IMG/VR virus record: IMGVR_UViG_3300005732_000058
Coordinates: 1-40,856 of that record
Strand: one strand, 5' to 3'
Length of the DNA: 40,856 bases
DNA from: a virus
Taxonomy: Duplodnaviria > Caudoviricetes
Program-made: the position numbers and the translations under genes
In this document: positions 1 to 24,378 of the stretch, one piece after another
How positions within the stretch are numbered: the stretch's first letter is position 1
Layout: each line of letters begins with the position of its first letter
Notes under the pieces: generated by a model
The model's database searches: none
The model's input: the letters and a program-made list of their open reading frames with translations, nothing else
What the model was told of the DNA's origin: nothing

Positions 1-68
1 ACTGAGCGAGCGCGGCATTGATCTGGCGATGTCCAATGACGACATCATGGCCGCGCTCAATGGTGGGC
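1..68. repeat. 68-bp terminal direct repeat (copy 1), most likely the assembly overlap of a circular or permuted genome
   Basis: Bases 1-68 are identical to 40789-40856, and the reading frame continues across the junction (ATG 40817 = ATG 29). Confidence 0.95.
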
Positions 69-3000
69 AGCCTCAAAAGACCGATCCTGTTTCATTTGCT
101 AAATCTATTGCGGCCAAAATTAGAGAGCTTCTTCCTGAGGTCGCGGCAAGCATAAAAGTCAATGTTGTGCCTGTTGGCGATGCTGCCCTGAGACGGAATA
201 AGGTCGCGGAAGAGTCAGGAGTAGATATTCATGCTGATGCCACAAGTTCAGGCGGGACAATAACGATCACGCCAGAATCAAGTGTTGAGCTTATCGTGCA
301 TGAGTTCCGGCACGTTCTTGATATTGTTGTTGTAGGGTTGGGCCTGCGTGATGCTGTCACAAGTCTTGAAAGCACAAATGAGGGTCGTGACCGCCTGCAC
401 GGTTATCTAAACGCTGCGCGTGATGCGGGTCATATTCCTAAAGACGTTTACTTTGCAAATGAAGCTGAAATCGCAAATGGGCTTGTCGCTGCCTTCTGGT
501 CTGATCCCGATGGAATGGAGGCGGCGATACCTGAGATTTTTGACATCCTATTTGACAGCCGGATAAGTGAATTTTCATTTTTGAATGATATGCTTGCCGC
601 CCTGCAGGATGATCCCGATGGTCAGCAATATGATCAGGAAGGCCGCCTGCTGACTGACACGCCGGAATTCCGCGCGTGGTTTGGCGATAGCAAGGTGGTC
701 GATGAGAAGGGTGATCCGTTGACGATGTACCACGGGACGCCAGATGCTAGCTTTGACGCATTTAGTGAGGACCAGTTTTTTACGGAGGACCGTGAGTATG
801 CTTCGCGTTTTTTAAGTTCGTCCACGGCGTCATCCAGCATGTATGGTGTGCGAGACGGGGACGCTCAAGTTATTGAGGTTTACATAAAATCTGAAAACCC
901 TTTTGACACAAGAAGCCCTGACCATGCTCTGGTACTAAAAAATCAATTTTCGGGTGTTTTTGGTGAGGGCGTTTTGACAGAAAACGGCTTGCCTGATTGG
1001 GTTGAGGGGCGCGATATTGCGGAGTTTTTGCGCGAAAATGTTGCCGAACTGGGGTTTGACTCCGTAATCGTAGATGAGGGTTCCGATAACGCTGGTCAGC
1101 GCCCGCCTGCTTACATTGTTTTTTCTCCTGAGCAAATCAAATCCATCAACAACCGCGGCACCTTCGACGCCAACGATCCGCGCATTATGTTTCAGGACCA
1201 AGCGCACCCGTTTGAAGGCGTGACGCGCGATGAGTTTTTAGGTTCACCAAAGATCACATCAAATGCAAATGCATCCAGCTTGGTCCCTAAGGTTCTGGCT
1301 TCGGTCGAACCTGTTGAGGCGGTGCCTTTCAATGCTGGCGTCGGTCTCACTGCCAAGTATCACGAAAATGGCGCTGCTGTTCTCAAGGGCGACAAGGTGA
1401 TTGCCTCGTATAATCTTGGTGACACGCTGGTTGTTGCGAAAGGCCAGCGCCGCCAAGGAATTGCTGAGGAATTGGTTTATCAGTGGCGGATGAGGTTTCC
1501 GAATTCTCAACCTGCGACAAGCCGGACAAAGGCGTCCCAAAAACTACAGGAAAAGGTGTGGGATCGGATTCAGTCTGAAATTCAATCTGGCGAAACATCT
1601 TACAATCAGCAAAAGCGCGGCTCGATCGTTCTGCCGCGCGGCGGACTAACCGAGGGCCAGACCGTCATCAACCTGTTTGAAAGCGCTGATCTGTCCACGT
1701 TCCTGCACGAAAGCGGTCACTTTTTCCTTGAGGCGTTCACGGCGATGGCCACATCTGAGGGTGCGCCGCAGGCGATGGCCGATGATCTGGCTGTGATCCA
1801 CAAATTCCTTGAGGTCGAGGATGGTGCATCACTGACCCGCGATCAGCACGAAACATGGGCGCGCGGATTTGAGGCATACCTGATGGAAGGCAAGGCACCG
1901 TCGCTGGGGCTGGCCAGCGCCTTTGCGCGGTTCAAGGCATGGCTGACCCGCATTTACCGCACCGTGCGCAACCTCGATGTGAAGCTGACGCCAGAGGTTC
2001 GCGAGGTCATGGATCGCATGCTGGCCACGGATGAGGAAATCGCGGCAATGCGCGATGATCTGGCCATGCGCCCGCTGTTCGCTGATGCTGCGCCTGCGGG
2101 GATGTCGGATGCTGACTTCGCCACATATCAGCGGATGGCCCAGCGCAGCGCTGACCAAGCTGAGGCATCGCTTATGAAACGCACCATGGAAAAGGTGCGG
2201 CGCGAAACCCAGAAATGGTTCAAGGACGAAAAGAAAGCTGTGCGGGCAGAGGTTGAGGCCCGCGCCAACAAGATGCCTGTCTATCGCCTGACCGAAATGC
2301 TGGCCAACCAGCGATGGATCGGTGACGCGGATCGCGAGGTGCCTAACATTCAGATGGATCGTGATGCGCTGGTTGATCAATTCGGCGAGGGTGTCATTGC
2401 AGAGCTGGGGCGCACGCGCCTAGGCGGCAAGCGCGCGATCTATGCCAAGGGCGGTGATCGCCCTGAGATAGTCGCTGAGATGTTCGGCTTTTCCAATGTG
2501 GTCGAGATGGTCGAGGCGCTGCAGAACGCGGGCAAGCGCAAGGATTACATCGACGGCGAAACTGACCGCATCATGGTCGAGCGCCACGGTGATCCGCTCA
2601 ATGATGGATCGATTGAGGAGGCCGCGGCGCTGGCCGTTCATTCTGAGCAGCAAGCCGCCATGGTCACGACTGAGGCCCGCGCGATCGCCAAGCGCTTGGG
2701 GCTGCCGACGCGCAATATCAAGGCCAAGGAATACCGAGCCCGCGCCAAGGCCATGCTGGGGCGCATGAGCGTGCGTGAGGCGTCACGGTCGGCGTCGTTT
2801 CTGCAGGCTGAGCGTCGGGCGGCCAAAGCTGCTGAGCGTGCGTTTGCGCGGGTTGCGCGCGGCGGCACGCGGGCTGAGGCGTCACTGGCTGAGGCGATGC
2901 AGGCGAAAGAGCAGCAAATCCTCAATCATTTCCTCTATCAGGAGGCCCGTGATTTTGAGGCGCGCCTGCAGCGCGCGCGCGAAAAGTTCCGCTCATTCCA

Positions 3001-5413
3001 AAAGGAAAGCGTCCGCAAGGCTGTGGGCCTGGCTTATCTCGATGAGGCAACGGGTGAGATGGTGCCCGGCCATATTGAGCAGATCGATGCCCTTTTGGAG
3101 CGCTATGACTTCCGCTCACGCAGCGACAAGCAGGTGCGCAACGCCGAGTCCCTGATGGCCTATGTGCAGCGCATGACCGATGAGGGCCGTGCGGATGAGC
3201 TGGCGATTGATCCCGTCATTTTGCGCGATGCTGAGCGCCGCCATTACACGCGCCTGTCGGTTGATGAGTTCGCTGGGCTTGTGGACACTGTGGCCAACAT
3301 CGAACACATGGGGCGGCGTCGGGCCCGGCTGGTGGATCGTAAGCGCAAGCGTGATCTGAATGAGGTCGCGTCCCGCGTTTCTGGCCTGGTGCGTGATCGG
3401 TTTGGTCGCGGCAAATCAGACGCCCAAAGCGGCGCGGTGCGTAACTTCTTCAACCTGCTCATGCGTGTGGACACTGTGGCCATCGACATCGACAAGGCAG
3501 AGATGGGCGATTTCTATGACGCCATCAAGCGCCCGATTGATGAGGGCTCTGCGGCTGAGCAGCAAATGAATGCCGAGTCTGCTCTTGAGATTGAGGCGCT
3601 GTTTGATGTCTACACATCCAAGGAAAAGCGCGACTTCAACACGGCTCGCGTGATCCCTGGCGCAAACGGCCAACCTTGGTCAAAGCAGCAAATCCTTTCA
3701 GTGGCGCTGAACACAGGCAACAAGGAAAACCTGCAGCGCGTCCTAGATCGTCGCGTTGATCGTTCTGTGCGCCTGACCCAGCCCCAACTTGATGCCTTGC
3801 TCGACACGTTGGATAAGCGCGATTGGGATTTCGTCCAAAGCATCTGGGATTTCGTGGGCAAGTTCCAAAGGGAATCCTTTGATGTCGCTGAACGGATGAC
3901 CGGCGTGCGACCCAAGGCGGTTGAGGCCGCGTCGGTGCAAACCAAGTTCGGCACATATCGCGGCGGGTATTATCCGATCGGCTATGACCCAACCAAGTCG
4001 AAAGCGGCACAGCTCGACGCTGAGGGCGCGCTGGATCAGTTTCTGTCTGCGGGGCGGGGTAACGCGGCCAAGGTCGCTGATGGCTTCACCAAGGGCCGCG
4101 CGCAAAGCGGCGGCGGGCGCGCCGTCCTCTATGATTTTTCTGTGATGATGCGCCATTCTGTTGATGCCGCGCGCCTGATCGCGCTGGCTGAGCCTGTGTA
4201 TAATGCTCAGCGCATCCTCAACCACCGATCGGTGTCTGATGCCTTCCGCGATGGCGGCCAGGCCAACCTGCTTTCTCAGCTCAATCTGTTCCTGCAGGAC
4301 ATTGCGTCGGGCCCAGTTTATAGCTCTGACCCGATCAATGCAGCCTCGCGCTTTATGAAGAACAACTTCACCTTGTCGCGGTTGGCCTTCAATCTCAAGA
4401 CAGTGGCGCTGCAGGTGACTGGCTTGGGGCAGTCGGCGGCGGTGATCGGAAAACGCAACCTGATGCGCGGCTTTAATGTCTATCGCCAAAACCCAGCACG
4501 GGTTGCTCAAGATGTTCTGGCTAAATCGGCATTCATGGCTGAGCGCCAGACCACGTTTCAGAAAGATGTCTTTGATGCGCACAATGAGGCGCGGGTGTCG
4601 TCTCCGATCGCCTCGCGCTGGCGCGCTGGGACTGAGGTTCTGTCAAAAGCGGGCTTTGCGCCTATGGTCAAAACGCAGTTCTACGTGGTGGACCTGCCCA
4701 CGTGGCTGGGCGCATTTGAGGCTGAAATCCGTCGCAACGGTGGCGATGAGGCCAAGGCCATTCACTTTGCGGATCGGATGGTCGATCGCTCTCAGGGTGG
4801 CGGGTTCATGGCTGATCGCAACGCGCTTGAGCGCGGCACTGTATCCCGCAACGTGCGCCAATCAGATTTCGTGCGATTGTGGACCACGCTGGGCGGATAC
4901 ATGGTGACAAAGCTGAACCGCGGATACGTGACAACACGCCAAGGCGCGCGAGCCATTGGGCAGGCTAATGGCCCGGTCGAAAAGGTCGCTCAGGCCGCGA
5001 ACATGGCCGCTGATCTGACTCTGTTATTTGTGTTTGAGGCGGCTCTGATGGGGCTGGCTTATTCCTTGCTGACTGACGATGAGGATGAGGAGGATGTTGC
5101 CGCGTTCATCGCCAAGGAAACGGCTGCGGCGGCGCTGGGTGGCATCCCGTTTGTTCGCGAGTCTTTCAGCGCATTCAATGGATACGGTGCTGGCGGCGTT
5201 CTTAGCTCGGCGCTTGAAATTCCTGCAGATGTTTGGACGCAAATTTCGCAGGGCGAGAATGACAAGGCGTTTCGGCGCGCGGTCGGAGACGCCATCGGTT
5301 TCGGAACCGGATTGCCGACAACGCAGTCAATTCGTGTTATTGAGGAAATCATAGCCGGTGATGACGGCTCAATCGCAGAGGCCGCTTTTGGCCGAAACCC
5401 GCTGGCTGATTAG
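29..5413 (+). CDS. C-terminal ~1,794 aa of a giant polyvalent internal virion/ejection protein (true start ~38411, across the origin)
   Basis: In frame with the open frame 38411-40856. Contains HEFRH (299-313) and HESGH (1706-1720) zincin motifs, an ART-PolyVal-like segment (FRAWFGDSKVVD...YHGT...FFT...VYIKSENPFD) and a GNAT-like segment (VAKGQRRQGIAEELV). It is the last ejection gene before the tail fibre. Confidence 0.85.
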   Translation: MSNDDIMAALNGGQPQKTDPVSFAKSIAAKIRELLPEVAASIKVNVVPVGDAALRRNKVAEESGVDIHADATSSGGTITITPESSVELIVHEFRHVLDIVVVGLGLRDAVTSLESTNEGRDRLHGYLNAARDAGHIPKDVYFANEAEIANGLVAAFWSDPDGMEAAIPEIFDILFDSRISEFSFLNDMLAALQDDPDGQQYDQEGRLLTDTPEFRAWFGDSKVVDEKGDPLTMYHGTPDASFDAFSEDQFFTEDREYASRFLSSSTASSSMYGVRDGDAQVIEVYIKSENPFDTRSPDHALVLKNQFSGVFGEGVLTENGLPDWVEGRDIAEFLRENVAELGFDSVIVDEGSDNAGQRPPAYIVFSPEQIKSINNRGTFDANDPRIMFQDQAHPFEGVTRDEFLGSPKITSNANASSLVPKVLASVEPVEAVPFNAGVGLTAKYHENGAAVLKGDKVIASYNLGDTLVVAKGQRRQGIAEELVYQWRMRFPNSQPATSRTKASQKLQEKVWDRIQSEIQSGETSYNQQKRGSIVLPRGGLTEGQTVINLFESADLSTFLHESGHFFLEAFTAMATSEGAPQAMADDLAVIHKFLEVEDGASLTRDQHETWARGFEAYLMEGKAPSLGLASAFARFKAWLTRIYRTVRNLDVKLTPEVREVMDRMLATDEEIAAMRDDLAMRPLFADAAPAGMSDADFATYQRMAQRSADQAEASLMKRTMEKVRRETQKWFKDEKKAVRAEVEARANKMPVYRLTEMLANQRWIGDADREVPNIQMDRDALVDQFGEGVIAELGRTRLGGKRAIYAKGGDRPEIVAEMFGFSNVVEMVEALQNAGKRKDYIDGETDRIMVERHGDPLNDGSIEEAAALAVHSEQQAAMVTTEARAIAKRLGLPTRNIKAKEYRARAKAMLGRMSVREASRSASFLQAERRAAKAAERAFARVARGGTRAEASLAEAMQAKEQQILNHFLYQEARDFEARLQRAREKFRSFQKESVRKAVGLAYLDEATGEMVPGHIEQIDALLERYDFRSRSDKQVRNAESLMAYVQRMTDEGRADELAIDPVILRDAERRHYTRLSVDEFAGLVDTVANIEHMGRRRARLVDRKRKRDLNEVASRVSGLVRDRFGRGKSDAQSGAVRNFFNLLMRVDTVAIDIDKAEMGDFYDAIKRPIDEGSAAEQQMNAESALEIEALFDVYTSKEKRDFNTARVIPGANGQPWSKQQILSVALNTGNKENLQRVLDRRVDRSVRLTQPQLDALLDTLDKRDWDFVQSIWDFVGKFQRESFDVAERMTGVRPKAVEAASVQTKFGTYRGGYYPIGYDPTKSKAAQLDAEGALDQFLSAGRGNAAKVADGFTKGRAQSGGGRAVLYDFSVMMRHSVDAARLIALAEPVYNAQRILNHRSVSDAFRDGGQANLLSQLNLFLQDIASGPVYSSDPINAASRFMKNNFTLSRLAFNLKTVALQVTGLGQSAAVIGKRNLMRGFNVYRQNPARVAQDVLAKSAFMAERQTTFQKDVFDAHNEARVSSPIASRWRAGTEVLSKAGFAPMVKTQFYVVDLPTWLGAFEAEIRRNGGDEAKAIHFADRMVDRSQGGGFMADRNALERGTVSRNVRQSDFVRLWTTLGGYMVTKLNRGYVTTRQGARAIGQANGPVEKVAQAANMAADLTLLFVFEAALMGLAYSLLTDDEDEEDVAAFIAKETAAAALGGIPFVRESFSAFNGYGAGGVLSSALEIPADVWTQISQGENDKAFRRAVGDAIGFGTGLPTTQSIRVIEEIIAGDDGSIAEAAFGRNPLAD

Positions 5414-5424
5414 GGGAGACAAGC

Positions 5425-8079
5425 ATGACCATTTCGAGCAGCACCAATAAATCTGGGCCATATAACGGAAATGGCTCTACTACAGTTTTTGCGCGAACAT
5501 TTCGCGTTCTCGACGCGGATCACCTAAAGGTTTACCAAACTATTTCCGGCGTCACATCAGAGGTCACTACCGGCATCAGCAAAGACGGGATTGGCTCGGA
5601 TAGTGGAAATGTTACCTTTGACACGGCCCCCTTGGCCGGAACACAGATCACGCTCTTGCGCGACATCCCGTTAACGCAGGAAACGGATTATTCTGCGCAG
5701 GGCAAGGTCTCTCCTGTTCAAGTTGAGGATGACCTTGATTTGCAGGAAATGCAAATTCAAGACATGCATGGCAGGGTCGAAAGAAGCATTAAGGTGCCTA
5801 TCACATCTGACGGCGGATTCGAGGTTTCGGAGCCATCATACGGTCGTGCACTGATCGGTAATATCGGTGAGGATGGATGGGAGGCCGGTCCCAATGCCCA
5901 GGAGATTGCCAACGCGCAATCTTATGCAATAAGAGCTGAGGAGGCTCTGGCAGCTACGGGCGGTCGATTATATGAGTCTTTTGCCGAAGCTGAGGCCGCT
6001 TCTGTCCCGTCCGTCGCCATTATGATTTGGGTCAAGTTCAACGGCATGTTGTTGGCCTTTGAGCGTGACGATGATTATTCGTGCTTCACCGATGCAAATG
6101 GTGATTCATGGCGGCCTCACACAGCATACCCTGCTTTTTATGAGCATTGGCAAATTGCAACCCGATACATTGACCCTGATGAACGCACTTTTACACCGGC
6201 GGTAACGGTCGGTTCTATCATGTCATCAGAAACAGACTACACCACGCAAATCAACGCTTGCCACTCTGAACACAAGGGCATCGTTTATGTGAATGGATTT
6301 GTCAATCATCGGCAAATTCAATGGCATCGCGAGTGTGTTGTCTTGAACGGGGCAGGCGGCGAGTTTGTAGCGGGTTTCAACGCTATTTATGATGACACGA
6401 TTGATCACTATCACCTCGGAGATATTGGTGAGCGCGGATTCTTGTGCGGCAACTTAACGTTCTATGCAGAGCAGCCAACAGATGCCGCAAGTCGAGATGA
6501 TTTGATCCGTTATCCATGGGCAATCAAAATGTCCGACAGCGCACGATCTGTGCCGTCATCGATCCGCATCGTCGGATATATCAACGGCGTTGACATGAGC
6601 GATAGCCCGGCACCCTCAAACGCGGGTGGCGCTCATCTCGAAGATTTGGAGACCATGTGCTATGGCATAGGCGTCTATATCAATGAGGCATTGGATTACG
6701 TCACGATAGCACCGTATCGGTCCTGGCCCTTTATGATGGCGGGCTTTCAGCCGCTTGTAGATATTTTTTCCGATGGGCTTACGGATGCCATTCGTGTGGA
6801 GAAATGTGACGGGTTCATTGGTGAAATTGCCACATGGAAAACTAGAGCCTCATTTGGTCGAAATGCTGGCACACATCTTGTTCTAACGGGGGATGTCGGC
6901 TGGTTGACCGAAGGTGAAACTATCACTCAGTCTGTCAGTGGTGCCTCTGGGGTTGTGGATTACATTATTGCCGGGCCCAGAACTCAGGTTCGGTTAAAAG
7001 ATGTGTCGGGCTCCTTTGACACCACAAACACCCTTTCGGGGTCTGATACTGGGGCAATGGCGGCGGCCTCTGTTCCCACGTCCGCAACATCCATATCAGC
7101 GCAGTCAGAGGGCGCAATAACCTATGATGTCAATTTGTATCTCGACGCGCCCGGCTCTTATCTGCAGCTCCGCGGCGGGAAAAGTAGGATCAAGCTTTAT
7201 TCATCAAAGGTTGAGGAAGAAAGTCAGCCTACTATCCATGCGACATTTGGTAAGCACTTTGTCACAGGCGACATAAGGTCAAGCACTGATGACGCGGTTT
7301 TGGTGGATGGCGCGTCCCTTCTTGTGCACGATGCGATGTTGCGATCTGAAATATCAGATGTGACCTTTGCAAAGGTTTCAAGCGGTCGCCTGACTATTAA
7401 GGGGTGTCAATTTCAGTGGCCAGATGATGGCCTTCATGCTGGCATTCCGTTTGTTGAGCAGGCTGGCGGTCAGCTCGTCGTTACAGATTGCGACACTGCT
7501 GACATGCAGCAAGCCCGAACTGCGGTTTCATTCTCTTCCGAAAACCTGTTTCACCACGTTTCTGGAAACAGGTTTGGCCCGCATGAGGTCAATTATTCAG
7601 ACACGTATACATTGGGTCTTTACGAGGGTGAAACCAAGCGAAACCAAACGGCGCAGGGAAACACATCTTACATTCGAACAATTCTCTCCGATACTGTTAC
7701 GAATGCCAGGAATGAAGTGACGCGCCGCGCTCGCGGCGTAAAGGGTGCTATCACCAAAGTGATTGTTGGTGTCGTAGTAAAAAATTGGCTTTTTCAGGTT
7801 TGGACGGGCTCTGGATGGCAAAATCTAATGCAGGATCGCACAAAGGTTTTGGCGGAATCCGGTGGGGTTTCGTCTGGTGTGCGAGACGTTTTCGTAGCTG
7901 ATAGCAGCGGAGTTTTGCAGCATGTGACATCACATGAGGCTGCCCGCTTTGTTTCTAAGCAGGACGCGAGAGTGGAAGGGGATTTAGATGTGACTGGAAG
8001 CGCTACGTTTGCCGGAAATTCCACTGGCAATATAGATCGAAATTTTCTTAACGACTACGAAACCGCGAGGGATGCGTAA
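5425..8079 (+). CDS. Tail fibre/tailspike 1 with T7 gp17-like N-terminal virion anchor
   Basis: N-terminus YNGNGSTTVFARTFRVLD...ITLLRDIPLTQETDY...EDDLDLQEMQIQ is typical of podovirus fibre anchors. The central region is beta-rich. RBS GGGGAG. Ends in DRNFLNDYETARDA. Confidence 0.85.
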   Translation: MTISSSTNKSGPYNGNGSTTVFARTFRVLDADHLKVYQTISGVTSEVTTGISKDGIGSDSGNVTFDTAPLAGTQITLLRDIPLTQETDYSAQGKVSPVQVEDDLDLQEMQIQDMHGRVERSIKVPITSDGGFEVSEPSYGRALIGNIGEDGWEAGPNAQEIANAQSYAIRAEEALAATGGRLYESFAEAEAASVPSVAIMIWVKFNGMLLAFERDDDYSCFTDANGDSWRPHTAYPAFYEHWQIATRYIDPDERTFTPAVTVGSIMSSETDYTTQINACHSEHKGIVYVNGFVNHRQIQWHRECVVLNGAGGEFVAGFNAIYDDTIDHYHLGDIGERGFLCGNLTFYAEQPTDAASRDDLIRYPWAIKMSDSARSVPSSIRIVGYINGVDMSDSPAPSNAGGAHLEDLETMCYGIGVYINEALDYVTIAPYRSWPFMMAGFQPLVDIFSDGLTDAIRVEKCDGFIGEIATWKTRASFGRNAGTHLVLTGDVGWLTEGETITQSVSGASGVVDYIIAGPRTQVRLKDVSGSFDTTNTLSGSDTGAMAAASVPTSATSISAQSEGAITYDVNLYLDAPGSYLQLRGGKSRIKLYSSKVEEESQPTIHATFGKHFVTGDIRSSTDDAVLVDGASLLVHDAMLRSEISDVTFAKVSSGRLTIKGCQFQWPDDGLHAGIPFVEQAGGQLVVTDCDTADMQQARTAVSFSSENLFHHVSGNRFGPHEVNYSDTYTLGLYEGETKRNQTAQGNTSYIRTILSDTVTNARNEVTRRARGVKGAITKVIVGVVVKNWLFQVWTGSGWQNLMQDRTKVLAESGGVSSGVRDVFVADSSGVLQHVTSHEAARFVSKQDARVEGDLDVTGSATFAGNSTGNIDRNFLNDYETARDA

Positions 8080-8099
8080 TGAGCCTTGAGACAAGATTA
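8035..8099 (+). repeat. Gene-junction repeat copy 1 (DRNFLNDYETARDA-stop/MSLETRL)
   Basis: Homologous to 8499-8563. The 20-nt core GCGAGGGATGCGTAATGAGC (8065-8084) is identical, and the flanks differ mostly synonymously. Confidence 0.9.
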
Positions 8100-8543
8100 A
8101 CCGCAGCATTCCAACAGATCGGCACTGACGTTGGGGGCATCAAGAGTAAAACTGACCACATATCTGTAACGCAAGCCGTTGATTTAGACGCTATTGAAAC
8201 GCGAGTAAATGCACTCGATCAAGCTGTTGTGCTGAAAGGCACATTCAGCGCTTCCGGCGGCAGCTTCCCAGGGTCTGGATCAGCGCAGGCGGGTGAGGCT
8301 TGGATTTCCACATCTGCGGGCACCATTGATGGAATGGAAATCAACATTAATGATCGTGTCATCGCGGTATCGGATAATGCATCTGTTTCTGATAGCGATG
8401 ATTGGCACCTGGCCGACTACACGGATGAGGTTGTGTCTGTTAATGGGCGATCAGGTTCCGTCACCGGCCTTCAAGAGGCTTCGGATGTAGGCGATACTGA
8501 CCGAAATTTTCTGAATGATTACACAACGGCGAGGGATGCGTAA
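8079..8543 (+). CDS. Small fibre-associated protein (putative linker/extender), 154 aa
   Basis: TAATG-coupled on both sides. Has fibre-type motifs LKGTFSAS..FP...GEAW...W and VVSVNGRSGSV. Starts MSLETRL and ends DRNFLNDYTTARDA. Confidence 0.8.
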   Translation: MSLETRLTAAFQQIGTDVGGIKSKTDHISVTQAVDLDAIETRVNALDQAVVLKGTFSASGGSFPGSGSAQAGEAWISTSAGTIDGMEININDRVIAVSDNASVSDSDDWHLADYTDEVVSVNGRSGSVTGLQEASDVGDTDRNFLNDYTTARDA

Positions 8544-8563
8544 TGAGCTTGGAAACCCGTTTA
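8499..8563 (+). repeat. Gene-junction repeat copy 2 (DRNFLNDYTTARDA-stop/MSLETRL)
   Basis: The 20-nt core at 8529-8548 is identical to 8065-8084, 464 bp apart. Confidence 0.9.
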
Positions 8564-11500
8564 CGAGACGCATTTCAGGGGGTGGGCGCTGATGTCGGTG
8601 AGGTTTTGGACCGACTTCTTAAAACGCCTACTGTCTATGCCGCGCGGTCCAATCTGGTCACTGCAATATCCGCTGGTGATTTGGATGATTATCCTTCGGG
8701 GGCTGTCGTTACCGCCGGTGAGCAAAGGTACGTCAAAATGCCTACCGCCCACGCCGCATACGGCACCACCCCAATATCAGACATGGCAGGCTACGCGCCT
8801 CTTTTGCCTGTGGCCGCTGAGCATTTCGGCTTTGTGGTGGGGGATCGCAGCGAAGCTTTGAACAACGTGGCCAAGTTTAACGCAGCGCTTTCGTACTGTC
8901 GCACCTACAACACAGAGCTTTGGTTGTGGTCAGGGTCTGGCTTCCTTCGTCCAAACGCTATGAGCTTGGAGGGCGTAACGGTTCGAGGCTACGGCATCGG
9001 GCTTGTGCAGCACACCGCTTACTACTACGGAAACAACACTCAAACCCCATGTGCAACGCAGATCGTGCTTACTGGCACCACGACGAATGCGATGCAAGTT
9101 CACGGTATTTCCTCCGCGCAATCTTGCGGCGCGTCACGCTCGTTTACGGCTCGCAGCGATCTGGACGAAAGTACGTGGAAGATGGTGTCCTTTATGAACG
9201 AGGATGCCACCACGGGCGCGGCCACGGTTAAAGACTTGGCGGTAGGCCTACTCGTTGATGGTGAAGGCGGAGCGAACTGCATGGGGTTCCGTGTCGTCGT
9301 GGATGCGGGCGGCACCCACGGCTTGGATGACTACAACAGCACGTCTACAGCGGAAATCATTGGCGATGTAGACATTGGCATCCTGCAGGTGGGGGCGGGG
9401 GAGACGGCGTACACAGACGTTCAAACTCTGGGCCACTACCAGATGGCGGGGTACGCAAATGTAGCCATTGATTTAGATGGCAATTACTCCGATTACCACG
9501 CACCTTATGGCACGACGATGACCCGCTGTAACTTCCAAGGTATGCGGGCCTTTATCGTGCGCGGACCTGACCGCTTCAAGATCATCGCAGAGACTTCCAC
9601 AACCGTTGACCTCCCTTGGGCGGATGACCATCCGTTCACCTTGGATAGCGGACACACCACTATCCGACTGACCGACACAGGCACCGGAACGGGTGGGGGT
9701 AGCACGTTCACATATACAGGGGTGAGCAAGGTCGATTTAGGAGGCGGAGACGTTCGGGTGCGCCTTTCCGGCCTCACGAGCTTTTCGTCTGGGTCTTACG
9801 AGGCGGTGGTCCCCACTTCTGCAGGCGGGGCCAACAGCCACATCGTATTCCGAGACTGCCAGATCGGTGGTTTAATAATCCCAGCGGGATGGCAAGCGAA
9901 CGACAGCACTGCCCTTTCTGACCACATTGCGAACGGAGCTATTGGTGGTTTTGAAATAAGTGGATGGCGCTGCGCAGAGATCGACGTACATGGTCGCCTG
10001 CAACATCCCGGCTCTTTGGCTGGGTTCATCCACGATGCGCGCGAAACCATCCTTGATTTGCAGTGCGAGGCGGGCAGCAACCGGCGACACAGCGATGCGA
10101 TGACTTGGATTGTAAGCCCACAACACAACGAAAACACTCACTCCACACATGTGGCGGGGGGTGCCCGTTGGATTGATTGGCGATACACTATGGTTTCGGA
10201 GCGTTCCGCAAGCGACACTGACTTTGCACCATTCATGGACTTCATTCCTCGACCCTCTGCGTTTAGTGGGGGTGACGGTTGGTTTGAGACGTATTTTGCT
10301 ACGCGTGCCCCGACTGTTCGCAGCCGTACAGACAGCGGCAGTGATGACATCAACAAGCTCGTCGCCCCAGCGCTTGCAGTGGGCCCGGAAGCGGAAGGAT
10401 TTAACGGTTGGAATCCTGACGGCCTGTTCCACGTCCGTGCGGCTACAGGGTTTGTTGATGCGGTTATTGAATCCGTCGAGGCAAATCGTGACCCTCGACT
10501 ATTCTTCAAAAGCAACACGTCCGACTGGATGGTGAGCAGTGATGCATCAAGCGGCGGGGATTTTGTAATTTCGCAAGACGCGGATCAAGACGGCACATTT
10601 GACATTCGTATGCGTTACGAAGGCGGCGGCACCGAAACTGGCTGGCACCTACAGTCCAATGTTTGGCTGGAAGGCGTGACCACAACGGATGACCAAATTC
10701 ACGTCACAGCGTCATCCGGAAACGTCAACCTAACACTGCACTCGAACGATGGCCTATCGAACACAGAGCTTCGACAATACGACGATGAAAGTTTTTGTAT
10801 CTACGCACACGACTACCTGCGTTTCCGAGCGGGCTCAGCGGACGTGTTGCAACTAGACATTGATGGCAGCGCCACGTTCTATGATGATGTTGACATCACA
10901 GGCACGACGCGCGGCATCGGGCAGGGCAATATCTTCGCGAGTGGCGCGACTGCACGGGATGATCTTGATGCAATTCTGGGCTCCACAAAGTCCGTCCTGG
11001 CGGTTGCTTACAACGTACCCTCGTCCATGACCTACAGCATATCATCAACGACAGAGTTGGTGGTAGCCCGCTCGGCGTCGGTTAACATGACGCTGTTGAC
11101 GGCGGGTACGAACTCGGCCCGTATCAACTTCGCGGATGAAGCGGACGAAGATGTTGGGCAAATCGAATACAACCACAACATTGACACGTTTAACTTCAAG
11201 GCCGACGCGGCCACTCGAATGTCAATCAGCGCGGAACGTACACAGGTCAAGAACAAGTTTAACATTGGCGTGCGCAACGCTAAAACAATCGCGTCGGGCG
11301 CAATTACATACACCAACGGGTTTACGGTGGTGGCTCCTGAAAGTGGTTCGGCGGATGATCTTGATACCATCAACGGCGGTGCAGACGGAGACCTGTTGGT
11401 TGTTTGTACTAATTCGTCATCCAACACGATCACTTTGAAAGACGGCACCGGGAACCTGGCACTGGCCGGTGACTTTGCAATGGACAACGCACGTGACATG

Positions 11501-11569
11501 ATCGTGTTGATTTACGACAGCGCGAGCAACGTGTGGGCGGAACTTTCTCGCTCTAATAACGCGGCATAA
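8543..11569 (+). CDS. Tailspike/receptor-binding protein 2, 1008 aa
   Basis: Starts MSLETRL with no gp17-like anchor. VAAEHFGFVVGD..A..N...FNAAL resembles the entry of a pectate-lyase-like beta-helix. C-terminal TIASGAIT...DDLDTING...WAELSRSNN domain. Lies in the tail module. Confidence 0.75.
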   Translation: MSLETRLRDAFQGVGADVGEVLDRLLKTPTVYAARSNLVTAISAGDLDDYPSGAVVTAGEQRYVKMPTAHAAYGTTPISDMAGYAPLLPVAAEHFGFVVGDRSEALNNVAKFNAALSYCRTYNTELWLWSGSGFLRPNAMSLEGVTVRGYGIGLVQHTAYYYGNNTQTPCATQIVLTGTTTNAMQVHGISSAQSCGASRSFTARSDLDESTWKMVSFMNEDATTGAATVKDLAVGLLVDGEGGANCMGFRVVVDAGGTHGLDDYNSTSTAEIIGDVDIGILQVGAGETAYTDVQTLGHYQMAGYANVAIDLDGNYSDYHAPYGTTMTRCNFQGMRAFIVRGPDRFKIIAETSTTVDLPWADDHPFTLDSGHTTIRLTDTGTGTGGGSTFTYTGVSKVDLGGGDVRVRLSGLTSFSSGSYEAVVPTSAGGANSHIVFRDCQIGGLIIPAGWQANDSTALSDHIANGAIGGFEISGWRCAEIDVHGRLQHPGSLAGFIHDARETILDLQCEAGSNRRHSDAMTWIVSPQHNENTHSTHVAGGARWIDWRYTMVSERSASDTDFAPFMDFIPRPSAFSGGDGWFETYFATRAPTVRSRTDSGSDDINKLVAPALAVGPEAEGFNGWNPDGLFHVRAATGFVDAVIESVEANRDPRLFFKSNTSDWMVSSDASSGGDFVISQDADQDGTFDIRMRYEGGGTETGWHLQSNVWLEGVTTTDDQIHVTASSGNVNLTLHSNDGLSNTELRQYDDESFCIYAHDYLRFRAGSADVLQLDIDGSATFYDDVDITGTTRGIGQGNIFASGATARDDLDAILGSTKSVLAVAYNVPSSMTYSISSTTELVVARSASVNMTLLTAGTNSARINFADEADEDVGQIEYNHNIDTFNFKADAATRMSISAERTQVKNKFNIGVRNAKTIASGAITYTNGFTVVAPESGSADDLDTINGGADGDLLVVCTNSSSNTITLKDGTGNLALAGDFAMDNARDMIVLIYDSASNVWAELSRSNNAA

Positions 11570-11576
11570 GGAGCTT

Positions 11577-12191
11577 ATGATGCAAACCGTAGATGAAATG
11601 ATTGACGAACTTTTGCCTCGCGAGGGTGGATTTGTAAACGATCCCGACGACCCAGGCGGCGCGACCAATATGGGTGTCACTATCCACACGATGCGCCGCC
11701 TCGGTATCGATATGGACGGCAACGGGGTTGTGGACATCCGCGATGTTAAAGCTTTGGACCTGGCCACCGCGCGCAAGATTTACAAACGTGAGTATTTCGA
11801 AGGTCCGCGCATTGACGATCTGCCAGAACCCATTCAGGCCAATGTGTTTGATATGTTTGTCAATAGCGGGGGGAATGCTATTAAAATCCTGCAGCGGCTC
11901 TTGAACAAAATGGGGCAGTCTGTTGCTGTTGACGGCGCGTTAGGCCCTCAGTCCATCGGGGCAACACATGAAGTTTTTGAAAAAGCATCCTCTCACTTGA
12001 ACGACGCTTACGCGATCGAGCGACGAAACTACTATTTCCGCTTAGCTGATCGACGCCCAAAGTCGCGCAAATATGCCCGCACAAGGGCTGGGGGCAAGGG
12101 CGGGTGGATTAAGCGGGCAGAGGAGTTTATGTCGCCGAAATACCACATGACGCAGGCGCAATTTGACAAGAGGGTGGCGGCATGGGGGTAG
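11577..12191 (+). CDS. Endolysin, glycoside hydrolase family 108 with C-terminal peptidoglycan-binding region
   Basis: GH108 signature EGGFVNDPDDPGGATNMGVT, plus FDMFVNSG and VDGALGPQS. RBS AAGGAG. Confidence 0.9.
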   Translation: MMQTVDEMIDELLPREGGFVNDPDDPGGATNMGVTIHTMRRLGIDMDGNGVVDIRDVKALDLATARKIYKREYFEGPRIDDLPEPIQANVFDMFVNSGGNAIKILQRLLNKMGQSVAVDGALGPQSIGATHEVFEKASSHLNDAYAIERRNYYFRLADRRPKSRKYARTRAGGKGGWIKRAEEFMSPKYHMTQAQFDKRVAAWG

Positions 12192-12673
12192 GTTCTTTGT
12201 TTGCGTTTTTGTTTGGCGGCAACAGAAATGTTGTCGTCGAAACCGCGGAAGTTTTTCGCGAGAATGCTGAGGCCGGAGCGCAACGCGAGGCTGATTATCG
12301 ACAGGCTGCGCTTACACAATACGGCCAAGAATTTCATCGTCGAAACAACCGTACATGGCTTGACGCTTTCGCTGACGCCCTGAACCGCCTTATTCGTCCA
12401 GTCCTTACCATCGCTGCTCTTTACCCTCTAGTGGCAACGGTTCGTGACCCAGAAACGATGTCACGTGTCTGGAACGCACTGGCCACACTGCCAAACGGCT
12501 ATTGGGCGCTTTTGGGTATTATTATTCCGTTTTATTTTGGCGGCCGAATGCAAACCAAGGCGCTGGATGCGAGCATGTTTCAAAGCGCAGCGGCTGCAGT
12601 GTCAAGCCTTGCTCAGCCTGAAAGTGATGAGGCAGAGGAAAACGCGGCTTTATCTGATTGGAGGAATGAATAA
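12182..12673 (+). CDS. Holin, 3-TM (GTA-holin-like) family
   Basis: DAFADALNRLIRP + hydrophobic helix + LATLPNGYWALLGIIIPFYFGGR; overlaps the endolysin stop. Confidence 0.75.
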   Translation: MGVGSLFAFLFGGNRNVVVETAEVFRENAEAGAQREADYRQAALTQYGQEFHRRNNRTWLDAFADALNRLIRPVLTIAALYPLVATVRDPETMSRVWNALATLPNGYWALLGIIIPFYFGGRMQTKALDASMFQSAAAAVSSLAQPESDEAEENAALSDWRNE

Positions 12674-12945
12674 TGGAAGCGGATTTGAAATGGTTGGTGG
12701 GGATCGCAGTATCTTTGTCTGTGTCAATTATTATGGCGTTCATTGGTGGGTTTAGGAACTTGGCAAGCCGCATATCTACATCCAATCGTGAACTCCACCA
12801 GCGCGTTGATGACGTGAAAGAAAAGTATGTTCGTCGCGATGACCTGGACGGGCACCTGCAAAGGATTGACGAAAATGTCAGGGACATCAGGGATGAAATG
12901 CGGGAGAACCATAGGCAGCTCCTAGAGGCCGTTCGTAAAGATTAA
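12673..12945 (+). CDS. Small membrane-anchored coiled-coil protein of the lysis cassette
   Basis: N-terminal TM (WLVGIAVSLSVSIIMAFIGG), YVRRDDL motif and coiled coil; TAATG coupling to the holin. Confidence 0.65.
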   Translation: MEADLKWLVGIAVSLSVSIIMAFIGGFRNLASRISTSNRELHQRVDDVKEKYVRRDDLDGHLQRIDENVRDIRDEMRENHRQLLEAVRKD

Positions 12946-12970
12946 AAAAGCCCCGGTTGATCCGGGGCTT
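12944..12970 (-). terminator. Rho-independent terminator of the leftward operon (possibly bidirectional)
   Basis: Hairpin AAGCCCCGG-TTGAT-CCGGGGCTT (12948-12970) with an A6 tract at 12944-12949, between convergent genes. Confidence 0.85.
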
Positions 12971-13026
12971 AGTTTGTCAGCGATGCGCTTTGTCACAGGC
13001 AAGACGCGCGAGCGCTGACTGCTCGA

Positions 13027-17717: not shown

Positions 17718-18144
17718 TCGCGTTTACCGCTTGCGCCTATCGACGCCGCCGCCCAGCGTAAATGCTATGTGGCGCGCCGTGGTGCGCGGCAAAAATGCGG
17801 TCAATATTCTATCCAAGGATGGACGCGCGTGGAAAGAGATGGCTGAGCTTGAACTGATGTCCCAGCAAGGTCTCGGCTCTGATCCTCGATATTGGCGCGC
17901 TGACATCCTCATTCCAGGCAAAGGCACTCGTGCTGACCTGGATAACTACCTCAAAGGAATTCTTGACGCGCTCGGCGCGGCGGGAAAGTCGCCAGATGAC
18001 CGATACTTGGTCGATCTGCGCATTCGTTTTCACTCAGGCGATCATGTCGCCATTGCTCTCAAACAGGAGGACCTATCCACATGGGCAAAAATCCGAAACG
18101 CATCGAAATCACTGATCCTGAAACTGGCGAAGTTTTCGAGCTGA
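17710..18144 (+). CDS. rusA: RusA-family Holliday junction resolvase
   Basis: PPSVN, DLDNYLKGILDAL, DDRYLV. Confidence 0.85.
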   Translation: MADRVYRLRLSTPPPSVNAMWRAVVRGKNAVNILSKDGRAWKEMAELELMSQQGLGSDPRYWRADILIPGKGTRADLDNYLKGILDALGAAGKSPDDRYLVDLRIRFHSGDHVAIALKQEDLSTWAKIRNASKSLILKLAKFSS

Positions 18145-19184
18145 ACGCATCCAGCTTGGTGTCTGATACCATCGGCGTTCTGATGTCATGGCGGCGCAAC
18201 GTCATTCAATCCATGGTCTGGGAGCAGCTCAGCGAGGAGCAACAGCAAGAAGCGATCGGCAACGCCGAGTCTCTTGCGACCGATCTGGTCACAAGCCTTG
18301 TCGAGATTATCGCGACCGGCGGCAATGACGTGATCCACGCGTTGCTCGACAACTTCAAGATCAAGGATGGGACCGTGACCGTTACTGCCAAGGGCATTGC
18401 GGATGACGCCGCGCTGCTGGCGCTCAACTCTGTGGGCAAGAAAGCTCTCAAGATCGTGGTTGCTGATGCTGAGCAGTTTGATCAGACGGGCGATCGCCCT
18501 GAGGCAACGCCAGATCAGCCATCCATGGACTTGGATGAGGATGAAGGTGACGGAATGTCGGATGAGGAGATTGATGACATCGCCTCTGATATGGACGCCG
18601 ATCTTGGCGACATCGAGGAGCCCGATGACCTGCATGACGGCGATAGCAACGTGCCGGTCAGTGACCCTGTTTCGGATGAGCAGGTTGAGGGTTATCACGC
18701 CCGCATGCAAGGCCAGCACAGTCAGCGCAACCCATACGACATGGACACACCTGCCCGCGAGGAATGGTATCTGGGCTGGAAGCGCGCGGATGACGATGAT
18801 GTCGCACCCGATGTTGAGCCATGGCCGCCAGAGGATGACGGCAAATCAGATGGCGAGACTAAAAATGTCGATACGGAAACCTCGCCTGCCGATACAGAGG
18901 CGGAAATCCCAGATATGCCGCCGCGCGAGGCTGGCCAGCAAGCACGGGTCAAAGGCGATGGTCCCGACAGCAACCCATATGACGGCGGCACCGATGAGCA
19001 TGCAGCCTGGGCTGAGGGCTACACATCCGCCGATGCTGAAATCCAAACCCTGATCGATGCTGGCAAAAAGGCAGGGCTCGACGGCGCGCCGAAAAAAGAC
19101 TGCCCCTGGAAGAAAGGGACGGATGGCGAGCGCTTTTGGCTGCAGGGTTATGAGCGGGGCAAGGCTGAGCGCGATCAGGGTTGA
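18081..19184 (+). CDS. Acidic protein with three C-terminal RMF-like repeats
   Basis: Strong RBS AGGAGG; three G..A...G.....(N/C)P(Y/W).......W..G(W/Y) units. Confidence 0.75.
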   Translation: MGKNPKRIEITDPETGEVFELNASSLVSDTIGVLMSWRRNVIQSMVWEQLSEEQQQEAIGNAESLATDLVTSLVEIIATGGNDVIHALLDNFKIKDGTVTVTAKGIADDAALLALNSVGKKALKIVVADAEQFDQTGDRPEATPDQPSMDLDEDEGDGMSDEEIDDIASDMDADLGDIEEPDDLHDGDSNVPVSDPVSDEQVEGYHARMQGQHSQRNPYDMDTPAREEWYLGWKRADDDDVAPDVEPWPPEDDGKSDGETKNVDTETSPADTEAEIPDMPPREAGQQARVKGDGPDSNPYDGGTDEHAAWAEGYTSADAEIQTLIDAGKKAGLDGAPKKDCPWKKGTDGERFWLQGYERGKAERDQG

Positions 19185-22392: not shown

Positions 22393-22592
22393 TGCAGCGC
22401 GACGACGACAAAAACGTGAGCGGTGCTGAGTATGAAAACGCCATGCTTGGTGATGATCTGATTGATGCGCTGCGCGGTGAGCGTGAAAACCTTTATGGCA
22501 GAATAGAAGATGGTCAGGCTGGCGTGAATGAGTTGCGGTGCCGCCTCAAGATCGTGACACACGAGTTGCTTAAGGCAGAGGTGGCGCGATGA
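22389..22592 (+). CDS. Hypothetical coiled-coil protein (~67 aa)
   Basis: ATGA overlaps at both ends; start revised from 22311. Confidence 0.55.
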   Translation: MMQRDDDKNVSGAEYENAMLGDDLIDALRGERENLYGRIEDGQAGVNELRCRLKIVTHELLKAEVAR

Positions 22593-23788
22593 TTTATGGG
22601 TCAGTTTGCAGCGGCATAGAAGCTGCCACACAAGCTTGGCACCCGCTTGGATGGACGCCAGCTTTTTTCAGTGAGGTGGATAAGTTCCCCTCAGTGGTTC
22701 TTGCGCATCATTATGGGTCAAACATGCCCGATGAGCCGCATAGCGATAATGGCGTTCCAAACTATGGGGATATGACAGAATTTGAAAGGTGGCCAGATCA
22801 TGCAATCGACGTTCTCGTTGGAGGAACACCCTGTCAAAGTTTTAGCGTGGCGGGATTACGCAAGGGCCTTGCTGACCCACGGGGGAACCTCATGCTTACA
22901 TTTGGCGCAATTGCTCAAAGATATAAACCCAAGTGGATTGTCTGGGAAAATGTCCCCGGTGTTTTGTCCAGTAACGAAGGACGAGATTTTGGAACCTTCC
23001 TCAGGCTCTTGGGGGAATGCGGGTATGGGTTCGCCTACAGAGTTCTTGACGCTCAATATGTCCGAGTGGAACGGTTTGGACGGGCTGTCCCTCAAAGACG
23101 AAGACGTGTTTTCGTTGTCGGATATCTTGGAGACTGGCGACGTGCTGCCGCGGTTCTTTTTGAGCCAGAAGGCATGTCAAGGAATCCTGCGCCGCGCCGA
23201 AGAAGCGGAAAAGGAGCTGCCGGCCGCAATGAAAGAGGCATTGCAAGCGGGAAGCCAACTGTAGGCACGCTTATGGCAAACGCTGGATCAAAGCAGTGGC
23301 TGGGCAACCAAGAGGCGCTGTCTGGTGACTATCACATTCTTGAGCCTGTGGCATTTACGGCAAATGACAACGGTAGAGATTCGACCACAGATGGAGTGGG
23401 TCCAACCCTTAGAAAGGGCGGCCAAGGGAGTTCTGGCGGTCCAGTTTGCCCAGCAATTGCATTTAAGCCTTCGCACTACACGCGCGGCAAAGATGGTGCC
23501 CCATCTAACGTATTTCCGCCGCTAAGTGCGGATGCCGACAAAGGTGATCAAGACCCTGTAATTTTATCGGAGTGGCGAGTGCGCAGGTTGACGCCGATTG
23601 AATGTGAAAGGCTGCAGGGATTCCCTGATGATTTCACCAAAATTCCTTGGAAGGGGGGCTTGCCGCAGGATTGTCCAGACGGGCCACGATACAAAGCGCT
23701 TGGTAATAGCATGGCGGTCAATTGCATGCAGTGGCTGGGCCACAGAATACAGATGATTGAAGATTTGTCTGCTGAGTTGGCGCTATGA
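22589..23788 (+). CDS. DNA (cytosine-5)-methyltransferase
   Basis: Motif I SVCSGIEA, IV GGTPCQSFS, VI WENVPG, VIII QRRRRVF, IX RRLTPIECERLQGFP, X YKALGNSM. Confidence 0.95.
   Translation: MIYGSVCSGIEAATQAWHPLGWTPAFFSEVDKFPSVVLAHHYGSNMPDEPHSDNGVPNYGDMTEFERWPDHAIDVLVGGTPCQSFSVAGLRKGLADPRGNLMLTFGAIAQRYKPKWIVWENVPGVLSSNEGRDFGTFLRLLGECGYGFAYRVLDAQYVRVERFGRAVPQRRRRVFVVGYLGDWRRAAAVLFEPEGMSRNPAPRRRSGKGAAGRNERGIASGKPTVGTLMANAGSKQWLGNQEALSGDYHILEPVAFTANDNGRDSTTDGVGPTLRKGGQGSSGGPVCPAIAFKPSHYTRGKDGAPSNVFPPLSADADKGDQDPVILSEWRVRRLTPIECERLQGFPDDFTKIPWKGGLPQDCPDGPRYKALGNSMAVNCMQWLGHRIQMIEDLSAELAL
22800..23264 (+). CDS. Overprinted +1-frame ORF, similar to the beta polypeptide of two-chain C5-MTases (M.EcoHK31I type)
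   Basis: 154-aa frame nested in the MTase with AAAGGTGG upstream; KMSPVFC...SSGSWGNAGM...SLSDILE...FFLSQKACQGILRRA...LP resembles the recalled EcoHK31I beta pattern. Confidence 0.65.
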   Translation: MQSTFSLEEHPVKVLAWRDYARALLTHGGTSCLHLAQLLKDINPSGLSGKMSPVFCPVTKDEILEPSSGSWGNAGMGSPTEFLTLNMSEWNGLDGLSLKDEDVFSLSDILETGDVLPRFFLSQKACQGILRRAEEAEKELPAAMKEALQAGSQL

Positions 23789-24378
23789 CGTGGCCTTTTG
23801 GAATGATGCGCCAAGGCGTTCATGGCGTCATCTATGCTGATCCAGCCTGGCAATACCGCGGCTATGTCAGCGAGGGCGTGCCACAGACATCGAAAGATCA
23901 GCACTATCAGACCATGCACGTCGAGGACATGGCCAAGTTGCCAGTGTGGCGTCTGGCCGCTCCTGACTGCGCTCTGTTCATGTGGGGCATCAGCTCGCAC
24001 CTTGAGCAAGCGCTTTGGCTGGGTCGCAAATGGGGCTTCACCTTTTCGTCCAAGGCGTTCACCTGGGCCAAGCTTAACAAAAACGCGATCGCCGATGAGC
24101 GGCGGTGCGATGATCCAAGCGCTTATTTCATTGGCATGGGCCATGGGACACGGCGCAATACAGAGGACTGCTGGCTGTTCACACGCGGCAATCCCAAACG
24201 CATGGACAAGGGCGTGCGCGAGTTGATCGTCAGCCCTATCCGTGAACATTCGAGGAAACCAGATGAAACTTATGAGCGCATTGAAAGGCTTTTTCAGGGG
24301 CCATACTGCGAGCTATTCGCGCGCAACCAAAGATCAGGCTGGTCAAGCTGGGGCAACGAAACCTCAAAGTTTGGCTGA
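23785..24378 (+). CDS. MT-A70-family (N6-adenine) methyltransferase
   Basis: VIYADPAW, LFMW, WGF, FTWAK, GMGHGTRRNTE, EHSRKP, ELFAR...GW..WGNE. Confidence 0.9.
   Translation: MTWPFGMMRQGVHGVIYADPAWQYRGYVSEGVPQTSKDQHYQTMHVEDMAKLPVWRLAAPDCALFMWGISSHLEQALWLGRKWGFTFSSKAFTWAKLNKNAIADERRCDDPSAYFIGMGHGTRRNTEDCWLFTRGNPKRMDKGVRELIVSPIREHSRKPDETYERIERLFQGPYCELFARNQRSGWSSWGNETSKFG

Follow-up and report, generated by a model that had tools for sequence, protein, structure and literature searches.

A candidate serial tail-fibre system joined by paired terminal helices in a podovirus-type phage genome

The stretch of DNA analysed here (the window) is a complete virus record of 40,856 bases with terminal repeats, and its genes for portal, major capsid, nozzle and internal virion proteins belong to the BPP-1/T7-like podovirus type. 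Our subject is a run of three overlapping genes, A, B and C, that encode an anchored tail fibre or spike, a small extender and a second, anchorless spike, and whose products may be joined end to end by two short motifs: a C-terminal helix, the plug, and an N-terminal helix, the socket. The run is flanked by a gene for a protein of 1794 amino acids (aa) and by lysis genes, which is where tail fibres are expected. A gene transfer agent (GTA)-type holin hints at an alphaproteobacterial host. The features discussed below are as follows.

5425..8079, + strand: gene A, 884-aa anchored tail fibre/spike, with an anchor (aa 1-128), a body (aa ~170-858) and a C-terminal plug
5425..5808, + strand: podovirus tail anchor domain of A, like domain D1 of Carin-1 Dpo31/Dpo36 (phmmer; N-termini of PHROG tail proteins)
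8035..8076, + strand: plug 1, the last 14 aa of A, DRNFLNDYETARDA
8026..8134, + strand: junction repeat copy 1, comprising plug 1, TAATG and socket 1
8079..8543, + strand: gene B, 154-aa extender, with a socket (aa ~1-21), a fibre-shaft module (aa ~22-140) and a plug
8079..8141, + strand: socket 1, the N-terminal amphipathic helix of B (helix 3-24 in the AlphaFold2 (AF2) model of a family member)
8499..8540, + strand: plug 2, the last 14 aa of B, DRNFLNDYTTARDA (AF2 models residues 155-163 of a family member as a helix)
8490..8598, + strand: junction repeat copy 2, comprising plug 2, TAATG and socket 2
8543..11569, + strand: gene C, 1008-aa anchorless spike, with a socket, a head segment and a likely pectate-lyase-type beta-helix
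8543..8605, + strand: socket 2, the N-terminal amphipathic helix of C

Within the window, A carries only a plug and C only a socket. A plug profile (trained on 120 plugs, the window's own two included) gives 20.5 and 20.0 bits to the ends of A and B among 421 open reading frame (ORF) ends, the runner-up reaching 4.2. The A/B and B/C junctions both have a TAATG overlap and are spanned by a direct repeat of 109 nucleotides (nt), 72% identical between its copies and the largest repeat family within positions 4000-13000, whose unbroken identical core surrounds the TAATG. Between the copies, 8 of the 14 plug codons are identical, 5 synonymous and 1 a replacement, and the 19 socket codons divide into 5, 9 and 5; over all 33 codons, the totals in these three groups are 13, 14 and 6. 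A caveat on reading this as selection on peptides is that the identical nucleotides at the plug end also contain a Shine-Dalgarno-like GAGGG for the next gene. The plugs of A and B share 9 of 10 residues, the closest match among 83 cassettes (median 5), and this near-identity probably stems from a duplicated junction. An earlier, sequence-only reading of this DNA had quoted the termini of the three proteins, described the DNA copies as differing mainly at synonymous positions, given the first fibre a virion anchor and denied the 1008-aa protein both anchor and C-terminal peptide; all of this holds up, with the quoted termini found in ORFs of 884, 154 and 1008 aa, 14 of the 20 differing codons synonymous, and A anchored and plug-ended.

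The anchor is the best-defined part of A: residues 1-128 match the N-terminal domain of the Carin-1 tailspikes (Protein Data Bank (PDB) 28lx/8ck1; phmmer, E 1.6e-11), and domain D1 of Carin-1 is the part that fixes the spike to the podovirus tail (PMC13317679). Beyond aa 128 there is no meaningful Pfam or PDB sequence match, and weak matches to annotated tail spikes suggest a spike-like body. The middle of B, aa 22-140, is a common fibre module matched by 1068 representatives; among the 150 of these listed, the module is mostly internal to longer proteins, and three relatives of the window's B (P0002, P0003 and P0022) retain both ends. For C, an ESM Atlas feature score of 0.94 to PF12708 clusters makes a pectate-lyase-type beta-helix likely, on language-model features, and phrog_33794 matches aa 182-396. 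The Pfam search of A, B and C returned neither Mtd_N nor any other match; PDB sequence searches with the window's B, C and a socket profile gave nothing significant, including no beta-helix match for C. A DG(G/F)-type C-terminal peptide followed by a protein that begins with an Mtd_N-like head, a pairing associated with T4 gp36-gp37-type joints, is absent from A, B and C, whose termini carry other motifs. At another locus (L001:6627-12153), a 1277-aa fibre containing the shaft module of B is followed by a small gene and then a reverse-transcriptase-like gene, an arrangement that we take to resemble a diversity-generating retroelement.

The same arrangement occurs in other phages. Weak tblastn matches (E 5-7) of the isolated window ends pointed to Gordonia phage Runhaar and Nocardia phage P3.1, both of which have the A-B-C grammar in three consecutive genes, as do Caulobacter CcrBL9, Sinorhizobium phiN3 and Pseudomonas FBPa45; Ochrobactrum POA1180 has the B-type shaft repeat only, with neither plug nor socket. 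We define a cassette by a C-terminal plug of the form h-x3-[YF]-x2-A-[KRL] that is immediately followed by a socket helix at the next N-terminus, and the window qualifies. Plug and socket DNA patterns were derived from the cassettes of the five phages named and partly from prophage proteins of this kind. A junction pattern specific to the window matched 0 viral contigs. A looser plug pattern gave 16 matches in metagenomes, 14 of them resembling chance and two (L206 and L219) being true C-terminal plugs before a socket-like gene; L206, in a T7-like phage, encodes a 177-aa anchor-plus-plug protein, a B and a 773-aa beta-helix C. The canonical B proteins are phrog_4757, of unknown function, with no model in Pfam or NCBIfam. 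At E 1e-10 or better, the B profile picks up at least 4423 protein clusters, some via the shaft alone. The canonical shaft repeat is also found in the Bxb1 gp4 collar fibre (PDB 9d93), which supports a fibre role. The window's B has the family ends but no PHROG match, and its middle is filled by a different fibre module. An AF2 monomer of one family B has the two helices listed above, and Foldseek finds no match for it in the PDB at E 0.001, and family members plus generic fibres in BFVD.

The proteins on either side of B vary greatly. Upstream partners are unrelated to one another (a T7 gp17-type anchor, PF03906, in L206; Mtd_N in L155; an 899-aa tail protein in L035), many A genes encode fewer than 100 aa, and the C tips at plug-pattern loci range from 49 to 730 aa. 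A gene for a PF23926 LtfC-like beta-sandwich often stands directly before a small A (L005:2498-2848, above the cut-off; L148:3684-3995, below it; by position also in L008, L009 and L136), and its product is a candidate for the base of the chain on the virion side. GenBank annotation misses the start of C, with its socket, in Runhaar (L005:4001-4805) and P3.1 (L006:4064-4496); the Runhaar socket frame stops after 43 codons, and the relatives L166-L168 are intact at 266-267 aa. One four-part cassette (L186:2474-4281) has an extra 201-aa gene, plug-ended and socketless, between a socket gene and C. Cassettes adjoin head genes in some phages and tail genes in others; those of CcrBL9 (L007:5273-6717) and P3.1 (L006:2936-5200) lie a few genes past the major capsid gene, and B is called a 'head fiber protein' in some Gordonia records, so head fibres elsewhere may be built with this joint. 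The candidate role of B as builder of the phiCbK head filament is unsupported: phiCbK is absent among the records listed (60 of 140), and gp76 has been proposed instead (PMC3556154).

Is a plug regularly followed by a socket, and a socket regularly preceded by a plug? The sequence-only reading had proposed testing whether the two motifs co-occur at adjacent gene junctions; run from both sides, the check shows that in most cases they do. A plug-only DNA pattern found 71 loci in IMG/VR, and all 71 matches are C-terminal; the next gene has a strict socket in 65 and a socket-like start by eye in the other 6, against a strict-socket background in the plug set of 31 of 1367 ends, true junctions among them. 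From the other side, 120 loci were obtained with a pattern for the socket DNA alone, out of about 290 stretches stored for it in IMG/VR. The ORF before the socket ends in a strict plug for 109 of 124 socket matches, compared with 14 of 1929 other ORF ends; of the 15 left, 14 have a variant plug by eye (123 of 124 in total) and one, L033, has none. A socket gene also comes next after B in all 137 unique B proteins, on a profile trained on the same set.

Residues of the two motifs vary together. Among 191 unique plug-socket pairs, a plug Tyr accompanies a socket Asp in 124 and a plug Phe accompanies a socket non-Asp in 66, with one exception; once 5 mis-registered rows are removed, the rule holds for 186 of 186. 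We refer to the two pairings as dialects. Both window junctions belong to the same one, plug Y..AR with socket D, and a mixed cassette (L199) obeys the rule at each junction separately. The highest mutual information links plug positions 5 and 9 with socket positions 10 and 14, and plug positions 1 and 4 with positions 4 and 5 of the socket; paired positions that rise together would fit parallel helices, a pattern that the dialect split confounds. Junction spacers run from -11 to +30 nt and fall in all three frames (103, 61 and 22 of 186), and the plug Lys/Arg is retained in 19 of the 21 junctions with spacers of at least 8 nt. The basic residue is therefore not just a by-product of the ribosome-binding site, and together with the variable spacers in all frames it indicates that the constraint acts on the protein.

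A natural fusion bears on where C would sit. The body of A has four strong relatives; none is plug-ended by eye, and three run ~450-650 aa past the end of A. In one, P0278, A residues 83-858 align to 84-866 and C residues 15-120 align to 861-954 (E 7e-12), so a second spike is fused on directly, a peptide bond taking exactly the place that plug, B and socket occupy in the window. We regard this alignment as the best evidence that C would lie beyond the C-terminus of A rather than on a side branch. In P0280, residues 1-25 form, by eye, a socket-like N-terminal helix instead of an anchor before an A-type spike body, and the spike-body domain of A may serve as a tip in other phages.

Taken together, these observations lead us to favour, at a probability of roughly three in four, a serial fibre A-B-C joined by helical sleeves. 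The anchor domain of A would fasten it to the podovirus tail; the plug helix of A would grip the socket helix of B, and the plug of B would in turn grip the socket of C. Each of the three proteins is probably a trimer, and the sleeve would consist of three short plug helices lying, probably parallel, in the grooves of the three-helix N-terminal coiled coil of the next trimer. Across the joint, the conserved Tyr and Lys/Arg of the plug would lie opposite the Asp of the socket; in the second dialect, a plug Phe and Leu would lie opposite a socket Arg and Glu. B would then be a spacer that pushes the second receptor-binding spike out beyond the first. One B per fibre is expected in most phages; in the window phage the number may vary, since its two joints are near-identical, and chains of A-C, A-B-C and A-B-B-C all look permitted by its sequence.

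Several points weigh against this serial model. Plug and socket lie no more than 30 nt apart and are inherited together, and a tree built from 63 B shafts requires 8 changes of dialect (shuffled mean 16), strongly supported branches forcing only 1; covariation may thus be largely ancestry. The socket set covers 120 of about 290 stretches, and many of its loci are near-copies. A fold for the body of A is not established (the AF2 single-sequence model has a predicted local distance difference test (pLDDT) score of 31), and a BLAST match to C is present in one of the three long A relatives, with none in P0277 or P0279. The upstream plug falls below threshold for 54 of the 137 B proteins; four of these have one by eye, and the remaining 50, all of a lambda-like class with the gene order terminase-B-C-gpW-like-portal, lack an adjacent upstream plug. 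No second plug was found in 10 lambda-like records, one of them 100% complete, only that of B itself, and scoring of all ORF ends in two such records confirmed the plug of B as the sole one. A socket can thus exist without a plug on another gene, and in this class it must bind either B's own plug or a different virion site. The sequence-only reading had taken independent occurrence of the two peptides as a point against their pairing; it is seen in part, for these 50 of the 137 B proteins. In this prophage class (L031, L158, L244 and L248), B and a 130-aa C (phrog_11355, tail fibre) stand between terminase and the gpW-like/portal genes, possibly as a head or neck appendage, and the records contain no A plug at any position.

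The likeliest alternative, which we still consider less likely than not, is that B polymerises: A would nucleate, B would add repeatedly, plug into socket, and C would cap a beaded filament of variable length. Socket and plug of the same B belong to one dialect in 82 of 83 full cassettes and in 62 of the 63 rows of the tree. The window leans towards polymerisation, since its two plugs are nearly identical and nothing obvious forbids B-B contact, and the only plug in a lambda-like genome is B's own. Against repeated addition, 25 of 66 type-I cassettes have unlike residues at a second position in their two joints, where an aromatic plug with a hydrophobic socket at A-B and a non-aromatic plug with a polar socket at B-C suggest ordered 1:1:1 assembly. 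Moreover, the two ends of the L199 B are incompatible with each other, B ranges from 119 to 387 aa, so gene length can tune fibre length, and we found no report of long filaments in cassette-bearing phages. The joint differences, L199 and the length variation make a fixed spacer the better reading for much of the family. A broader version, in which a C-terminal helix of ~12 residues and an N-terminal helix of ~20 form a universal sequence-coded coupling, with B stacking and length set by the B:C ratio, is likewise doubtful. If it were true, one virion would carry two receptor-binding enzymes in series on length-variable fibres, and two orthogonal dialects would permit programmable serial assembly of trimeric proteins.

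The remaining alternatives dispense with the serial joint. It is unlikely that the socket is a stand-alone coiled coil seated on a virion site in neck, head or tail, with B and C as parallel appendages and the plug a mere capping helix. The lambda-like B proteins without an upstream plug would suit that arrangement, as would cassettes beside head genes in one phage and tail genes in another; it leaves unexplained the 71 of 71 plug-then-socket junctions, the plugless terminal C, the dialect match and the P0278 fusion. Quite improbable, too, is a DNA-level junction, combining recombination handle, ribosome-binding site and translational coupling, that swaps receptor-binding genes while the peptides do not bind each other: the 109-nt repeat with its core at TAATG, the GAGGG within plug codons and the hypervariable tips are what it would produce, yet the synonymous codon differences, the scatter of spacer lengths and the retained basic residue run counter to it, and anchorless B and C would be left with no means of attachment.

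We consider it highly improbable that C docks in the branched manner of KP32, with its N-terminal peptide on a gp10-like branching domain near the anchor of A. Like the second receptor-binding protein of KP32, C has no anchor and begins with a short conserved peptide; the KP32 protein is proven to dock through its N-terminal 29 aa on a branching domain inside the first (PMC13352976); the conserved partner here, however, is at the extreme C-terminus, many A genes are very short, and a folded branching domain of KP32/G7C type behind the anchor of A has no sequence match in Pfam or the PDB, where a very remote fold is possible. Finally, readthrough or frameshifting that makes A, B and C one polypeptide is barely credible given the variable junction frame, even with the identical TAATG overlap at both window junctions and the existence of fused relatives.

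Elsewhere in the window, the 1794-aa protein (29-5413), a likely internal virion protein, has an ART-PolyVal ADP-ribosyltransferase domain at aa 225-378; a 367-aa protein (18081-19184) contains three ribosome-modulation-factor (PF04957) stretches; and a C5 cytosine methyltransferase gene adjoins an MT-A70 methyltransferase gene (22589-24378).

A large unannotated phage family gains a testable role, and the sequences of T7-like, lambda-like, T4-like, Caulobacter and actinobacterial phages would reveal the order of fibre assembly. The serial chain would add a further route to two receptor-binding spikes, alongside branching and gene fusion. If the binding is real, a pair of very short helical tags, available in two dialects, would offer a compact means of linking trimeric proteins, and if B also polymerises, phages would make a length-variable appendage without a ruler.

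How does this system compare with those already characterized? The helical joint was not found in Pfam, in structures or in the open-access literature (subscription papers, for example on the phiM12 proteome and structure, and supplements lie outside that scope), and the helical motif pair and reusable extender appear to be undescribed. Some solved structures are related in part. Carin-1 Dpo31/Dpo36 (PDB 28lx, 8ck1) has a homologous anchor, with only residues 1-128 of A matching, and nothing in the text consulted in PMC13317679 points to a plug or second spike. The Bxb1 gp4 structure (9d93), with which PHROG 4757 shares a shaft repeat, includes neither socket nor plug, and the window's B has a different shaft module.

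One likeness is to phage T4, in which trimeric fibre proteins are joined end to end in gene order, gp36 binding the N-terminal region of gp37 (PMC3004832). As with gp35-gp36-gp37, separate fibre proteins would be joined serially. The head-to-tail plug-and-socket logic of the sequence-only reading is supported by junction co-occurrence, matched residue variation and the A-C fusion; because end-to-end joints are known from T4, it is less new than that reading implied. The differences are that T4 gp34, gp36 and gp37 are mainly beta-structure (PMC3004832), whereas the joint here would be a short helix pair used twice, with a middle piece carrying both halves, in a module that moves among podo-, sipho- and myovirus-like genomes. 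The second likeness is to the Klebsiella phages KP32, K11 and KP34, in which a second, anchorless spike is joined to the first via a short N-terminal peptide. Features of the KP32/G7C type are present here, namely an anchored first receptor-binding protein and an anchorless second one with a short conserved N-terminal peptide; the likely partner, however, is formed by the final ~12 residues of the protein before it, and the chain would be serial with an extender between the spikes. The A-B-C system would work like a T4 joint and carry two spikes as KP32 does, yet by its own features it appears to belong with neither.

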